This document shows, piece after piece, positions 2,470 through 47,692 of a stretch of DNA of 64,000 nt. The stretch lies in the IMG/VR virus record IMGVR_UViG_3300033463_000081, positions 1 to 64,000 of that record; one strand, given 5' to 3'. Numbering within the stretch: the stretch's first letter is position 1; each line of letters begins with the position of its first letter. Source of the stretch: a virus. Its lineage: Duplodnaviria > Caudoviricetes. The translations under genes were made by a program, and so were the position numbers. The notes below the pieces were generated by a model. The model was not told the origin of the DNA. It ran no database searches and saw only the letters and a program-made list of their open reading frames with translations.

Positions 2470-2746
2470 ACCTCAGAAACACAAAATAAACCCTAATAAA
2501 ATACCCAAGACCCAGGCGGACGTAGACCGAGCATATGAAAAGGGAAAGCTTGATGCCATGACCATCTTCCTCAACATCTGCGTCTTTACGCTCGGCTCCG
2601 ATATGGGTATGAGTGACGAAGACCTGGAGATATTCAATAAGCGTTTCGTGAAGAACCTTGAGTGCCATATCCAAGGTGAGATGCGAGAGAAAGATATTAA
2701 GGAAACACTCCTCGCAGAAAAAGGATGGGAGATTCAGATACTATGA
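2456..2746 (+). CDS. Hypothetical protein
   Basis: Overlapping ORF in operon. Confidence 0.6.
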   Translation: MNMAKPQKHKINPNKIPKTQADVDRAYEKGKLDAMTIFLNICVFTLGSDMGMSDEDLEIFNKRFVKNLECHIQGEMREKDIKETLLAEKGWEIQIL

Positions 2747-3090
2747 GAAGCCGTTGCCTTGACTGCCTATACTACTGCCATGAGCTTGGGTTCTGTTATA
2801 CCAGCAGAGGGAATCACCCCATATCCTGCGCCTACTATATCAAAGAGCGCAGCGATGATTCGCTTTCGATATCTTCCACGGAGTTGGAAAACGGCGTAAT
2901 CGCCTCCGCCTATGGACTCTCATATGAAGAAGTCATTCGTGGGCGCAATAGGTTGATGGAGGAATACTTTCAGCAAATTACCTGCATTGCCTGCGGTGCT
3001 CCGTTGGACGCCGTTACCCGTGGCAGGCACAAATTCTGCGCCAAGTGTGGGGTCTATCTCCCACGAATCATATACGATAAATCAGCATAA
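2743..3090 (+). CDS. Zn-ribbon-containing hypothetical protein
   Basis: CxxC motifs at both ends (CLDC, CIAC...CAKC). Confidence 0.55.
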   Translation: MRSRCLDCLYYCHELGFCYTSRGNHPISCAYYIKERSDDSLSISSTELENGVIASAYGLSYEEVIRGRNRLMEEYFQQITCIACGAPLDAVTRGRHKFCAKCGVYLPRIIYDKSA

Positions 3091-42343: not shown

Positions 42344-44386
42344 ATGTCTACTTTTGGCAACCCCATTGTAGCAAGCCCCAACCTGCTGCCGTCTATGGCT
42401 GATGTGTTCTCTACATCGACGGCGTACAGTGCGGGTCAATATGTATATTACGGCGGTAAACTGTACCAGTTCACGGCCAATCACGCAGCTGGTGCGTGGG
42501 TAGGAACGGACGCCACGGCGGTCAAGCTGGCGAACGACGTAAGTAACTTAAAGAGCGCAATTAGTGACCTTGACACCGCAGTAGACAACCTTGAGGCCAC
42601 TAAAGCAGACAAAGGCTCCGATGACCCCGAAGCGGCGGTCGGCACGGCTGAACAGGTCATGTCCGATGCGGGAGTGACCGACAAGGTGCCGTATCTGTTC
42701 CGCAAGTCGGCGGGTGACGGTGCGAACCGTGAGCGGGATTCCATTGTCGGCGGCACGGTGGCGTGGAATCAGCTTCTGCAAAAAAGCACCTTCTCTTATA
42801 CGGGCGGTGATTGCACAACGGACGCAGACGGGGTTGCGACCTTTACTGCTTCTGCGAGTGGGCAACAGGCATACAGAAGTGTTACATGTTACGCAACCCA
42901 TGTGATACTTGTATCCATTACCTTCAAAACAACTACAGCATCGAGCTACGTTAGGATGAGGGCGTTCGCCAACGATGTTGCTAGTATCGCAACGACATCT
43001 TGGCAGACTGGTTATTCCATGTATAAACCACCCAATAGCGGGAACCAAACTGTTGGCGTGATTGACCGCCGAGAAAGCGGGTGGGATGCAATAACCATCG
43101 ACCCGCCAATGGTGTTTGACCTCACCCAAATGTTTGGCTCCACCATAGCCGACTACATCTACACGCTTGAATCGACCGAAGCGGGTGCGGGAGTGGCCCT
43201 GTTCCGTTCCCTGTTCCCCGCCCCGTACTACGCCTACAACACAGGAGAACTGAAGTCCGTCACGGGTCTGTCGGCTCATGTCATGCGTGGGTTTAACCAG
43301 TGGGATGGTGAGTATGAAAAGGCCACAATCAACTGGACAACATACATCTTCACTCCCAACGCATCGGGGAGATGGTCGTCGAAGAATTATATCCCTGTAA
43401 TTCCCGACACCGCATATTATATCACCCATACGTCCAATAATGTTGTCTGCGGCTATACCGACAATCAAGGCAACGGTGGCAGGGCGTTGACCGTAAGCTC
43501 CCATCTTTTCACCGTTCCGTCCGATGTGCATTTCATCAAATTCGGCATCAATGAAACCGCACAGCCGACAGACGTTTGCATCAACATCTCCAACGCCGCT
43601 TTGAACGGCACATACGAACCCTATGACGGTCACAGCTACCCGCTTGACTCCGACCTTACTCTCCGTGGTATCCCCAAACTGGACGCAAGCAATAACCTGT
43701 ACTATGACGGCGACACCTATGCCGCTGACGGTACGGTGACAAGGAAGTATGCCATTGTTGATTTGGGGAGTTTGAGTTGGTCAACCACTTCTTCAGGGAA
43801 TCATTATGCGGGAATAGATAACCCACAAAAACTTGGAAATGCCGTGATTGCACACGCTGTATGCGGGAGGTATGTTGCGTCATCTCCAAGCGGATATGGG
43901 TCTATTGACAAGGCGTTTGCGATAGGAATGAATGGAACCAACAGCGTGTACATTCATGACAGCACATATGATAATGTCGATGCCGCCACATTCAAAACCG
44001 CAATGAGTGGTGTGTACCTTGTCTACGAACTCGCAACCCCGACAACCGAATCCGCTGACCCGTACAACCCCATTCAGATTGTAGACCCCAACGGAACGGA
44101 AGAATACGTTTCCACAGGCATCGTTCCTGTCGGGCACGATACGTTCTACCCCGAAAATGTGGCGGCGAAGATTGCGGGTCTACCTTGGAACTTTGCGAAT
44201 CTGATTGCCTACACCGAATCGGGATTCACTGCAAGCAAAGCCTATTCCGCAAACGATTTCCTTATCATCAACAATCAGCTTTACAAGGCCACAACGTCCA
44301 TCGCAAACGGTGCGACTATCACCGTAGGAACGAACGTCACGGCAACAACCATCGGTGAGCAAATCACCGCAATCCTTAATTCTTAA
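42344..44386 (+). CDS. Tail fibre/receptor-binding protein
   Basis: 680 aa; CBM5/12-like repeats at both ends (FSTSTAYSAGQYVYYGGKLY; FTASKAYSANDFLIINNQLY). Confidence 0.7.
   Translation: MSTFGNPIVASPNLLPSMADVFSTSTAYSAGQYVYYGGKLYQFTANHAAGAWVGTDATAVKLANDVSNLKSAISDLDTAVDNLEATKADKGSDDPEAAVGTAEQVMSDAGVTDKVPYLFRKSAGDGANRERDSIVGGTVAWNQLLQKSTFSYTGGDCTTDADGVATFTASASGQQAYRSVTCYATHVILVSITFKTTTASSYVRMRAFANDVASIATTSWQTGYSMYKPPNSGNQTVGVIDRRESGWDAITIDPPMVFDLTQMFGSTIADYIYTLESTEAGAGVALFRSLFPAPYYAYNTGELKSVTGLSAHVMRGFNQWDGEYEKATINWTTYIFTPNASGRWSSKNYIPVIPDTAYYITHTSNNVVCGYTDNQGNGGRALTVSSHLFTVPSDVHFIKFGINETAQPTDVCINISNAALNGTYEPYDGHSYPLDSDLTLRGIPKLDASNNLYYDGDTYAADGTVTRKYAIVDLGSLSWSTTSSGNHYAGIDNPQKLGNAVIAHAVCGRYVASSPSGYGSIDKAFAIGMNGTNSVYIHDSTYDNVDAATFKTAMSGVYLVYELATPTTESADPYNPIQIVDPNGTEEYVSTGIVPVGHDTFYPENVAAKIAGLPWNFANLIAYTESGFTASKAYSANDFLIINNQLYKATTSIANGATITVGTNVTATTIGEQITAILNS
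42541..42569 (+). repeat. Putative recombination site A (in the tail-fibre ORF)
   Basis: AAGTAAC-TTAAAGAGCGCA-ATTAGTGACC. Confidence 0.55.
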
Positions 44387-44405: not shown

Positions 44406-44660
44406 ATGAAACTTGCCATTATCGAGTGCGTAAACGGGAACTATGTTGTGCGGGCCGAGGGCATCGCTTCTGTCGAAGCCGCCAAGACGCAGTACCACGG
44501 GAGAGCGCAGGCTCTTTGGAACGCTCCCGATGTGCTGACCGCCTACATCGCCATTGTCGATGAGCAGTTGGATGTGGTCGAGGGCATGAAAGAGTACATC
44601 CATCATGACCCGACTCCTGCTCCCGAACCCGAAGAGGAAGAGCCTGTCGAGGGAGAGTAA
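44406..44660 (+). CDS. Small acidic protein after the tail fibre
   Basis: GGAGG RBS. Confidence 0.65.
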   Translation: MKLAIIECVNGNYVVRAEGIASVEAAKTQYHGRAQALWNAPDVLTAYIAIVDEQLDVVEGMKEYIHHDPTPAPEPEEEEPVEGE

Positions 44661-44848
44661 TGGACTACACCGAACTGGTGCAGGAATTGCGGGGCAACAA
44701 TTCCCCGCTTACCGACAAGGCCGCTGACGCAATCGAAGAACTGATTGCTGACCTTGAACGTGCGGAAGACTATGCCGAAGCATGGGAAGGGCTTGCCAAC
44801 GATTGCAAGGAAAAGTTTGTGGCGTTTGTCGAGAAGATGAAGCGGTAA
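44660..44848 (+). CDS. Small coiled-coil protein (AADAIEEL family)
   Basis: TAATG coupling. Confidence 0.6.
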   Translation: MDYTELVQELRGNNSPLTDKAADAIEELIADLERAEDYAEAWEGLANDCKEKFVAFVEKMKR

Positions 44849-44903
44849 CGATTTGGCATGATAGTAAAACAGATTTCATGCTATCTATACGGAATCACGC
44901 ATA

Positions 44904-44941
44904 AACACTTTCGGAATTTCTTTATAGAAAAAGGGAAGTGT
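44904..44941. terminator. Hairpin
   Basis: AACACTT...TTTCT-TTAT-AGAAA...AAGTGTT. Confidence 0.45.
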
Positions 44942-44986
44942 TGCGGGCTTGGATTCGCAGTATGTGACGGGTGCAGATTCAAGCGC

Positions 44987-45015
44987 AAGTAACGATTCGG
45001 CCCATATTAGTGACC
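44987..45015 (+). repeat. Putative recombination site B
   Basis: AAGTAAC-GATTCGGCCCAT-ATTAGTGACC. Confidence 0.55.
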
Positions 45016-45033
45016 ATCCATACGCATACATAC

Positions 45034-45150
45034 ACACTTGTTTAATAGCGGTCTGACAAGTGTTTCCCCACGATTCGGGGAGTGACCGAGTGCTGACCGC
45101 TAAGTTGAACTCGTCATTGGGCGTGACGAGGGTAATATAAATAAAGCCCA
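45034..45150. ncRNA. Candidate pseudoknotted ncRNA or ssDNA structure
   Basis: Three stems plus an 8-bp loop pairing TAGCGGTC/GACCGCTA. Confidence 0.5.
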
Positions 45151-45151
45151 T

Positions 45152-45188
45152 AAGAAGAGAGGGACTACCCTCAATAGTCCCTCTTCTT
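45152..45188. terminator. Bidirectional hairpin at the RHH1 3' end
   Basis: AAGAAGAGAGGGACTA...TAGTCCCTCTTCTT. Confidence 0.7.
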
Positions 45189-45368
45189 CAGAAACTCATC
45201 AACAGCCCTCTGAATCACCCATGACCTTGGACGATCCTCTTCCTTGCAGAACTTGTCCAGTCGGGTGAGGATACTGGGCGGCATCGTGATATTGAGCCGC
45301 AGGAAAAGACCCTCATCTTCCTTGCTGACCTCAATGCCACGGAGCGACCTACCTCCGTTGATTCCCAT
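45171..45368 (-). CDS. Ribbon-helix-helix (CopG/Arc-like) protein 1
   Basis: RLNITMPPSILTRLDKFCKEEDRPRSWVIQRAVDEFL; AAGGAGG RBS. Confidence 0.85.
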   Translation of the reverse strand: MGINGGRSLRGIEVSKEDEGLFLRLNITMPPSILTRLDKFCKEEDRPRSWVIQRAVDEFLKKRDY

Positions 45369-45426
45369 ACAGACACCTCCTTATTGATAGATTAACATCC
45401 ATGTCAATGGAGATGTATGCGGACTC

Positions 45427-45453
45427 AACTTTACGAGGCCCAAATTAATAACC
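45427..45453 (+). repeat. Putative recombination site C
   Basis: AACTTTACGAGGCCCAAATTAATAACC. Confidence 0.6.
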
Positions 45454-45477
45454 ACTGACTTACACTGGTGTACACCG

Positions 45478-45804
45478 ATGGAGAAGAGCAACATGGCAGA
45501 GTACGTCAACCGTGAAGAAATTCTTGCAGAGTATGACCGACAGCATCAAGGGCCTGCGGGCGGGGCAAGAAAGATAATGGCAGAATGGCCCGCCGCTGAC
45601 GTTGCTCCTGTTCATCACGGAAAGTGGATACCCGCAAAAACGAGATTTGCCTCATTGGGTGGTGACCCAGTATGGCAGTGTTCAGAGTGCGGTAAAGGCA
45701 TCCACACTTACGGAATCGAACACGCATTATACAACGCCAACATCGCAGACGGACAATGGAAATACTGCCCCAATTGCGGCGCAAAGATGGACGGTGAGAG
45801 GTGA
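45478..45804 (+). CDS. Zn-ribbon phage accessory protein
   Basis: MAEYVNRE...ADVAPVHHGKWI...CSECG...YCPNCGAKMD (likely start 45493). Confidence 0.75.
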   Translation: MEKSNMAEYVNREEILAEYDRQHQGPAGGARKIMAEWPAADVAPVHHGKWIPAKTRFASLGGDPVWQCSECGKGIHTYGIEHALYNANIADGQWKYCPNCGAKMDGER

Positions 45805-45841: not shown

Positions 45842-45878
45842 AGAAGAGAGGGGCTACCCCTCAGTAACCCCTCTTCTT
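45842..45878. terminator. Bidirectional hairpin at the RHH2 3' end
   Basis: AGAAGAGAGGGGCTA...TAACCCCTCTTCT. Confidence 0.65.
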
Positions 45879-46046
45879 CAACCATTCATCAAGCGCACGT
45901 TGGATAACCCACGAGCGGTTGCGATCTTCCTCTTTCATGAATCTCTCCAATCGCTCACGGATGGAATTAGGCAAAGAGATATGCAAATCGGTAAACCCCG
46001 ACATATCTTCGATGCCCCTCAGATTGCGGCCTCCATTGATGCCCAT
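45861..46046 (-). CDS. Ribbon-helix-helix protein 2
   Basis: DLHISLPNSIRERLERFMKEEDRNRSWVIQRALDEWL; paralogue of RHH1. Confidence 0.85.
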   Translation of the reverse strand: MGINGGRNLRGIEDMSGFTDLHISLPNSIRERLERFMKEEDRNRSWVIQRALDEWLKKRGY

Positions 46047-46092
46047 CGGCAAACACCTCCTACCACTATTGTACGGCGGCTGTCAATGAGTG

Positions 46093-46130
46093 CCAGTGAT
46101 AGCCAGTGAAATCCAGTGATAGCCAGTATT
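46093..46130 (+). repeat. 10-bp tandem repeats (operator-like)
   Basis: CCAGTGATAG CCAGTGAAAT CCAGTGATAG CCAGTATT. Confidence 0.8.
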
Positions 46131-46705: not shown

Positions 46706-47692
46706 TCACGCATACTTACGATAGGCGTTGCGCACGTTCTCCTTGCTTTGGTAGACGTATTCCATTGTGGTGTCCAGCTTGTCATGGCCGAGTACCGCCG
46801 CTACGTCCTGAATGGGCATACCGTTGTTGATGAGGTTCGTGGCCAACGTCCGGCGGAACTTATGCGGATGGACGCGCTCTACCCCGGACTCCGCGCCTAG
46901 CTGTCTGAGCATCCTTCGGACTCCACCGGGTTGTATACGCGCATCGGAACGGTTGATGAACAGCGCCTCGCAATCGTCTTTTCTCTTATTCAGATAGCGT
47001 TCCAGCATCATGGCGGTCACGCCGTCGAAGAACACCACGCGCTCCTTGTTGCCTTTGCCTCGGACTTTGCATTCAAAGTTCACAAGGTCGAGGTCGGAGC
47101 GGTTGAGGGAACACGCCTCGGAGATGCGGCATCCAGTAGCCAAAAGAAAGAAGATGATAGCCTTGTCTCTCGGATTACGGCATTTCTCTTTCAGCTTTTC
47201 TATTTCCGTATCGGAATACGGGGTCTTCACCTTCTTGGCGCATTTGATGGGTGCGAGATTAGCGCACGGATTATCTTTGAGCAGGCCCTCTTTCTGACAC
47301 CATCCGAAGAAAGAACAGTATACGCTCCTGTTCCCTTCCAATGTGGAGTCTGCAATCCCGCGCTCTTTCTCCTTGCCGAGATAAGAGCGGATGTGGAACA
47401 CGGTGATTTCCCTTACGGGGACATTGAGAGCGGAGAACAATCTTCTTAGCGTGTAGACAGACCTCGTGATGCTCTTTTCCGAGCATCCCTGCAATCTCTT
47501 CGTATCGCAGTATATGTCGAGCATTTCCTGCGCATCATTTGAGCCTGACTCGTTGGGGTGTTCCTCAACGGCATATGAGGACAGGTTCGCGGAGAGGATA
47601 TCAAGTACGGAGTTGATATCTTTCTCCAATAAAAAAGTCTTTAATTGTCTCTCTGTTTCTTTCAGCAATCGCTGTTTGGCAGTTACAGACAT
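46706..47692 (-). CDS. XerD-like tyrosine recombinase with N-terminal SAM-like domain
   Basis: TGCRISE, GKGNKER, HPHKFRR, LGH, MEY. Confidence 0.95.
   Translation of the reverse strand: MSVTAKQRLLKETERQLKTFLLEKDINSVLDILSANLSSYAVEEHPNESGSNDAQEMLDIYCDTKRLQGCSEKSITRSVYTLRRLFSALNVPVREITVFHIRSYLGKEKERGIADSTLEGNRSVYCSFFGWCQKEGLLKDNPCANLAPIKCAKKVKTPYSDTEIEKLKEKCRNPRDKAIIFFLLATGCRISEACSLNRSDLDLVNFECKVRGKGNKERVVFFDGVTAMMLERYLNKRKDDCEALFINRSDARIQPGGVRRMLRQLGAESGVERVHPHKFRRTLATNLINNGMPIQDVAAVLGHDKLDTTMEYVYQSKENVRNAYRKYA

Follow-up and report, generated by a model that had tools for sequence, protein, structure and literature searches.

A non-coding accessory unit of a tailed phage carries a diverged 6A/tenpI-type antitoxin repeat without its toxin, a candidate RNA decoy against TenpIN

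In the stretch of phage DNA analysed here (hereafter the window; 64,000 nucleotides, positions 1 to 64,000 of the IMG/VR virus record IMGVR_UViG_3300033463_000081), a small non-coding unit located behind tail genes contains, in its 3' half, a pseudoknot that we read as a homologue of the Rfam family 6A, and 6A is the tenpI antitoxin RNA, which binds the TenpN endoribonuclease of the Clostridial TenpIN type III toxin-antitoxin systems and so keeps it silent. The unit travels without the toxin gene. By analogy with pseudo-ToxI of phage PhiTE, we consider that there is about an even chance that its RNA acts as a decoy antitoxin against TenpIN abortive infection.

The source record is a 78,374 bp IMG/VR virus, complete as judged by CheckV, and its terminase, portal and tail genes are those of a tailed phage. 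A portal search among named phages gave an uncultured human-faecal phage as the nearest relative, with 40% portal identity, and a host search with the portal protein returned no match in 400 Clostridia genomes. The element occupies a 320-nt gap between a 62-aa gene, which ends at 44848, and a convergent gene encoding a ribbon-helix-helix (RHH) regulator (Table 1). Two reading frames were considered as genes and discarded, an 88-aa minus-strand frame across the element and a 44-aa plus-strand frame; neither is conserved in L054, a contig carrying a further copy of the element, because L054 shares only 44989-45129 with the window. The region is therefore non-coding in its context.

Table 1. Features of the RNA unit and of its surroundings (window positions; S1 and S2, stems; L1, loop)
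Feature	Position	Strand	Remarks
Tail-fibre gene	42344-44386		680 aa; upstream of the element
Two small genes	44406-44660, 44660-44848	+	upstream of the element
Left junction of the module	44989-45017	+	holds motif GGCCCATATTAGT at 44999-45011
PK-A, 5' pseudoknot	45034-45102	+	perfect 8-bp pairings
PK-A stem (first stem)	45034-45041/45056-45063	+	ACACTTGT/ACAAGTGT
PK-A loop helix (first-loop pairing)	45046-45053/45095-45102	+	TAGCGGTC/GACCGCTA
PK-A inserted hairpin (second stem)	45065-45069/45077-45081	+	TCCCC/GGGGA
PK-B, diverged 6A / tenpI-type antitoxin repeat	45106-45156	+	RF02925 match, own model R1
PK-B S1 (third stem)	45110-45116/45124-45130	+	7 bp; CTCGTCA/TGACGAG
PK-B L1	U45117	+	1 nt
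PK-B S2 (third-loop pairing)	45118-45122/45146-45150	+	5 bp; TGGGC/GCCCA
PK-B A-rich loop	45131-45145	+	15 nt, 9 A
Hairpin directly after the RNA	45151-45190		12-pair stem, terminator-like flag on the - strand
Convergent RHH regulator gene	45171-45368	-	Pfam RHH_1, 28.6 bits; context, not toxin
Paralogous RHH gene	45861-46052		
Tyrosine recombinase gene	46706-47692		Phage_integrase family; convergent to the third unit

The original prediction had described three stems and two loop pairings in this unit, and all of them are present and perfectly Watson-Crick (Table 1). The perfect 7-mer inverted repeats of 45016-45160 were equalled in only 20 of 5000 dinucleotide-preserving shuffles, and the + strand RNA fold of 45010-45200 (191 nt) gave a z of -3.9. 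Covariation in 38 homologous 6A repeats backs the third stem and the third-loop pairing, while the evidence for the first stem, the second stem and the first-loop pairing is the window sequence itself, the L054 copy being identical there. The unit had been interpreted as a small RNA, a ribozyme or a folded ssDNA signal carried as a cassette. The first of these held, judged by both a 3' pseudoknot homologous to Rfam 6A and a start motif common to the neighbouring units, and the other two found no support. No hammerhead, twister, pistol or HDV core had been fitted by eye, and the Rfam search likewise gave no match to these families or to hatchet in 44700-45500 at E up to 10, on either strand, nor to any ribozyme family in the whole window at gathering thresholds. 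The ssDNA signal is disfavoured since the covariance-model match is specific to the + strand and the members of the family are RNAs to which a protein toxin binds.

The permissive Rfam scan of 44700-45500 (E up to 10, both strands) gave no match to families other than 6A. The + strand match of RF02925 (6A RNA) to 45106-45156 scores 38.4 bits, the curated gathering cut-off being 41.2, with an E of 9.4e-6 in 801 nt and of 2.2e-7 across the 78-kb phage, and it spans the third stem plus the A-rich stretch up to GCCCA. Our own model R1 scores this 3' half, named PK-B, at 48.5 bits. PK-B forms all 11 pairs of the family, four of them via compensatory changes: in three pairs of S1 and one of S2, both sides are altered compared with the consensus. 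The loop and downstream segments, GAGC/GCUC in the family consensus, read GGGC/GCCC in the window copy, indicating that the third-loop pairing is a compensatory change relative to the family. PK-B keeps each of the seven columns that are invariant among the 38 aligned sequences and ends in a family-type A-rich 3' segment with the AAAG-YYCA pattern. It differs in two of the ten columns conserved at 90% or more, with U changed to A at 45109 and A changed to U at 45118 (the loop 'UAG' reads UUG), and the U at 45118 gives a fifth S2 pair with A45150 as its partner. No other copy in the set is as diverged: its mean identity is 57% versus 73% among the others, and its closest repeats are of the Oscillospiraceae type (L011, 69%; L008, 67%; L044, 65%). 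By Rfam's threshold PK-B is not a member of the family; on these sequence features we read it as a true but diverged 6A homologue. A look-alike found in another locus (L106), with the same loop and GCCCA motif, gave no match with the 6A model and was dropped as a chance resemblance.

The 6A RNA was reported by Weinberg et al. 2017 (PMC5737381), and Rfam lists it as an sRNA. Its identity with tenpI is seen in the organisation of its loci. In a phage locus retrieved by a pattern scan of viral contigs (L003), two 51-nt 6A copies in tandem are followed by a terminator and then by a 142-aa gene, whose product matches the NCBIfam TenpIN-family type III toxin NF047358 with 132.5 bits (cut-off 90). 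Twenty-one homologues of the L003 toxin were aligned, and 40 genome loci, mostly from Lachnospiraceae, Oscillospiraceae and other Clostridia, were retrieved with this TenpN alignment. Of the 40 loci, 34 have an Rfam 6A match that reaches the cut-off, and in 33 of these the match is found on the TenpN strand, no more than about 120 nt upstream of the gene and with a terminator between the two. Among the six loci devoid of 6A, one contig ends before the upstream region and five are partial toxin matches. The usual order of the locus is a promoter, a short first repeat of ~37-45 nt, a 6A repeat of 51-52 nt, a terminator and TenpN. Published tenpI RNAs have roughly two repeats in tandem, each of 39-57 nt, which may differ from one another, with a mean repeat of 50.9 nt and 2.2 repeats (PMC3401426), and the 51-52-nt 6A unit, in about two repeats, fits these figures. 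In the remaining locus with 6A (L039), two 6A repeats (1724-1827) with a promoter and a terminator lie just downstream of the TenpN match (1201-1614), and a toxin is not visible in the 110 nt after them. A Clostridial MAG (L013) also carries a skipping-rope RNA (RF02924, 65.6 bits, 2247-2326) ~600 nt downstream of TenpN.

The fold of the family leads to the same assignment. The repeats of tenpI are described as longer and non-identical, forming H-type pseudoknots with an adenosine stretch (PMC12283969), and cryo-EM shows the stems S1 and S2, an L1 that is very short (one nucleotide) and an extended A-rich loop running along S1, where the A-rich loop and the pseudoknot contact S1 and position the toxin-binding ends (PMC13682666). 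In 38 repeats of 6A, a pseudoknot made of a 7-pair hairpin and a 4-pair helix between the loop and the 3' segment has 98.8% of its cells paired and both-side changes in 10 of its 11 pairs, a level reached by none of 500 shuffles, and no slid register comes near it. We thus regard the H-type pseudoknot of 6A as proved by covariation in the aligned repeats, and the fold obtained in this way matches the cryo-EM description of tenpI (PMC13682666). This also provides a covariation-backed secondary structure for tenpI, which published alignments could not supply (PMC3401426). Our literature search found no paper connecting Rfam 6A with tenpI, and a motif that Rfam files only as an sRNA gains a concrete function as the tenpI antitoxin.

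In the window, the gene after the RNA is the convergent RHH gene, whereas in canonical loci a terminator and then TenpN follow. With E up to 10, the TenpN model NF047358 gave 0 candidates across the entire phage, and neither CptN nor ToxN had a match in this CheckV-complete genome; without a gene for any of these three toxins in the phage, the RNA is an orphan antitoxin. One could imagine that it serves a nearby toxin of a kind not yet recognised, the 108-aa zinc-ribbon protein or the 165-aa protein, in a non-canonical type III pair, given that no family is assigned to either of these + strand cargo proteins. We hold this to be very improbable, since a convergent RHH gene and a hairpin stand between the RNA and the next + strand gene, unlike in every canonical locus, sequences resembling TenpN, CptN or ToxN are absent, and the module follows a different gene in L054.

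Toxin-less 6A copies are frequent in phages. A degenerate repeat pattern matched 39 viral contigs, and 37 records were searched, 34 of which contain 6A at or above the cut-off. TenpN lies 50-110 nt downstream in 18 of these 34 records; in the other 16, no TenpN is found in the record, and four of these are 100% complete according to CheckV. Some toxin-less copies have their own promoter and terminator, and several are located directly behind structural genes, as in the window. Another type III toxin is present in only one of the 16 toxin-less records, a CptN ~1 kb away: in the complete phage of locus L094, a CptIN-family toxin (109.8 bits; 2564-3043, G016:38287-38706) lies ~1 kb downstream of a toxin-less 6A behind an HTH gene. 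In eleven toxin-less copies, the window one included, 121 of 121 cells are paired and six pairs are altered on both sides, and such complete pairing with covariation argues for continued selection on the fold.

In one lineage making up four of the 16 toxin-less records (L093, L095, L099 and L100, from G015, G022, G028 and G030), TenpN is reduced to a stub of ~27 codons abutted by a convergent 319-aa IS200/IS605 TnpB gene (434 bits); stub and TnpB gene lie about 100-1500 nt downstream of the 6A repeats, and both antitoxin repeats and the terminator are intact. In the bacterial sample, 6A occurs in only 3 of 151 genomes, too few for an orphan rate, and TenpN is broken in two of the three loci. 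The damaged genes lie behind an intact 6A at G042:C6:146109-146367 (Flintibacter muris, L044) and at G182:C12:13402-13695, one being split into two fragments and the other carrying three in-frame stops, indicating that the antitoxin RNA outlives the toxin in bacterial chromosomes too.

These loci bear on the main rival explanation, namely that a phage-borne TenpIN locus lost its toxin and that the RNA persists as a relic or passenger with little or no function, carried along with its promoter and terminator. Full TenpIN loci in 18 of the 34 phage records with 6A make phages a plausible source, loss of the toxin with retention of the antitoxin is seen directly in the TnpB lineage and in G042 and G182, and the window copy is both the most diverged of the set and under the Rfam cut-off. 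We nevertheless consider a relic unlikely. No toxin remnant exists anywhere in the phage, even among candidates at E up to 10, and PK-B has kept 11 of 11 pairs, four of them compensatory, at 57% mean identity, when neutral decay should break pairs. The toxin-less phage copies as a group are likewise 100% paired with covariation, and the 97% identity of the module in an unrelated phage background (see below) points to recent spread.

The module starts at a junction holding the motif GGCCCATATTAGT (Table 1). The sequence GGCCCAWATWART has three exact matches in the window, at 44999, 45437 and 46142, all on the + strand, and each copy precedes one + strand unit: the RNA, the 108-aa zinc-ribbon gene and the 165-aa gene. 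Both the RNA unit and the zinc-ribbon unit have at their end a hairpin that they share with a convergent RHH gene; the third unit extends to the convergent tyrosine recombinase gene. No sigma-70 consensus promoter was found at the module start, and the GGCCCATATTAGT/GGCCCAWATWART motif may be a promoter or a recombination joint. The hairpin directly after the RNA is present in both folds and is shared with the convergent RHH gene; canonical tenpI loci have their terminator at the matching position, and the modelled hairpin is likely to be the 3' end of the RNA. In the reading that we favour, the unit would encode a + strand RNA of ~175 nt, running from about 45020 to this hairpin; as no promoter was identified, its expression is assumed. 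Three 10-bp repeats in tandem (CAGTGATAGC / CAGTGAAATC / CAGTGATAGC) occupy window positions 46084-46123, in the divergent region that separates the second RHH gene from the 165-aa gene, and are likely to be an operator array. The first RHH gene is devoid of such an array.

The whole element has no match in named phage records, nor in exact-pattern scans of IMG/VR. A metagenome scan revealed one further copy of the RNA in L054, 97% identical from 44989 to the contig end, which falls inside the third stem. The similarity begins at the shared motif, and across its remaining 7 kb L054 resembles the window in a single fragment only, which belongs to the 84-aa gene and is 71% identical. In L054 the module directly follows the 84-aa gene, and the 62-aa gene is absent. 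In the window, a partial direct repeat, at 44840-44872 (GTAACGATTTGGC...) and 44987-45017 (GTAACGATTCGGCC...), flanks a 150-nt spacer after the 62-aa gene. Since L054 lacks the 62-aa gene and the spacer, the two phages differ by an indel between direct repeats. The three loci nearest by tail protein (L048, L049 and L050) diverge after 41949, and the whole region, 6A included, is absent from them; the element is also missing from L002, which carries a homologue of the neighbouring 62-aa gene. On the basis of these sequence comparisons, we conclude that the module is mobile between phages. Its description as a cassette in the original prediction is fair, because L054, otherwise unrelated, shares it and the nearest relatives by tail protein are devoid of the region. 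Among integron-type traits, no attC-like fold, inverted motif copies or sign of recombinase action was found.

The RHH gene has a distribution of its own. Homologues of RHH in 21 other phage loci have no adjacent 6A-like RNA and no GGCCCA motif, indicating that the RNA is not part of the RHH module. The start motif GGCCCAWATWART is also absent from these 21 related loci. An ENA contig of 2082 bp encodes the identical 65-aa RHH protein with another RHH gene and one of the XkdX family as neighbours, in a changed gene order, so that the RHH unit also moves between contexts.

The 5' half of the unit, PK-A (69 nt), shares the H-type topology of the tenpI repeat but has no A-rich loop. It gave no Rfam or covariance-model match at E up to 10 and no BLAST match among 106 loci. 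RNAfold, which cannot draw pseudoknots, prefers a nested fold that keeps the 45046/45095 helix over the first stem. PK-A may act as another decoy or protect the 5' end, both being guesses. Its want of tenpI features is one reason to ask whether a tenpI-like fold was co-opted for another RNA role, as a base-pairing sRNA, a 3' stabiliser of the late tail-fibre transcript or a regulator linked to the adjacent RHH units. The unit is indeed located at the 3' end of the tail-fibre operon, a search for a sigma-70 promoter of its own gave none, and its start motif and end hairpin are common to protein-coding accessory units. We rate such a role as quite improbable. 6A adjoins TenpN in all 34 of the TenpN-anchored loci that have 6A, and we know of no role for 6A other than that of TenpN antitoxin. 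Moreover, PK-B has kept the invariant A-rich loop and the pseudoknot, the very elements that touch S1 and hold the toxin-binding ends in position (PMC13682666).

The reading that we favour, a decoy antitoxin, draws on three published observations: TenpIN aborts phage infection (PMC3401426), one tenpI repeat is enough to neutralise TenpN (PMC13682666), and phage PhiTE evades ToxIN via the RNA mimic pseudo-ToxI (PMC3475682). In this scheme, infection would stop host transcription and the labile tenpI of the host would decay, while the phage RNA, transcribed late as part of the tail operon or from its own motif, would provide a surrogate tenpI pseudoknot. TenpN of the host or of a resident prophage would bind, and perhaps trim, the single-stranded flanks and the A-rich loop of the RNA; the toxin would thus be kept inactive and the infection could be completed. 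We count several points against the decoy: the Rfam score below the cut-off, the two altered conserved positions and the single recognisable tenpI repeat in the window unit, the absence of the module from the closest phage relatives, and the fact that toxin decay with the antitoxin kept occurs without need for a decoy role.

A wider proposal, more doubtful than the decoy itself and put forward tentatively, is that toxin-less tenpI/6A RNAs are widespread decoys of gut and rumen phages against TenpIN, the window unit being a mobile, bivalent form whose PK-A would decoy another, as yet undescribed RNA-binding toxin. So far a single laboratory case, PhiTE, is known in which a phage RNA mimics a type III antitoxin. 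About half of the phage-borne 6A copies have no toxin and yet keep a covarying pseudoknot, and one of them travels, as a small module, from one phage to another that is not related to it. Should these RNAs indeed neutralise TenpN, gut phages would commonly rely on RNA decoys as a natural counter-defence. The window RNA together with TenpN toxins of the Oscillospiraceae type forms a testable pair.

RNA anti-CRISPRs, which are solitary CRISPR repeat units in phages, follow the same logic of an orphan defence RNA used as a decoy, the defence system and the RNA being unrelated to TenpIN and 6A. Compared with 6A as defined in Rfam, PK-B has the 7-bp hairpin, the pairing of its loop with an ...AAAG-YYCA segment, the A-rich spacer, the seven invariant columns and a terminator-like hairpin directly after it. 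It departs from the family in its score (38.4 bits versus 41.2), in its loop (UUG versus UAG), in being a single copy with no toxin gene behind and in being joined to the unrelated PK-A. The tenpI of TenpIN likewise folds into an H-type pseudoknot, built in both from S1, S2, an L1 of one nucleotide and an extended A-rich loop; the unit length of ~51 nt, the non-identity of neighbouring units and a terminator at the 3' end, for which the hairpin is the candidate here, are also shared. Unlike tenpI, the RNA of the window has no TenpN in its locus or genome, its first unit is not recognisable as a tenpI repeat, no promoter of the usual kind was detected, and its place is the accessory part of a phage tail locus. 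Pseudo-ToxI of the Pectobacterium phage PhiTE differs in that it is directed at ToxIN, here replaced by TenpIN, in the size of its fold, and in that PhiTE needed repeat expansion or recombination for escape (PMC3475682), whereas the window RNA is known from sequence and its repeat shares a mobile unit with another pseudoknot. In both cases, a phage carries a homologue of a type III antitoxin repeat without the toxin, the role proposed for it being that of an RNA mimic by which abortive infection is suppressed.
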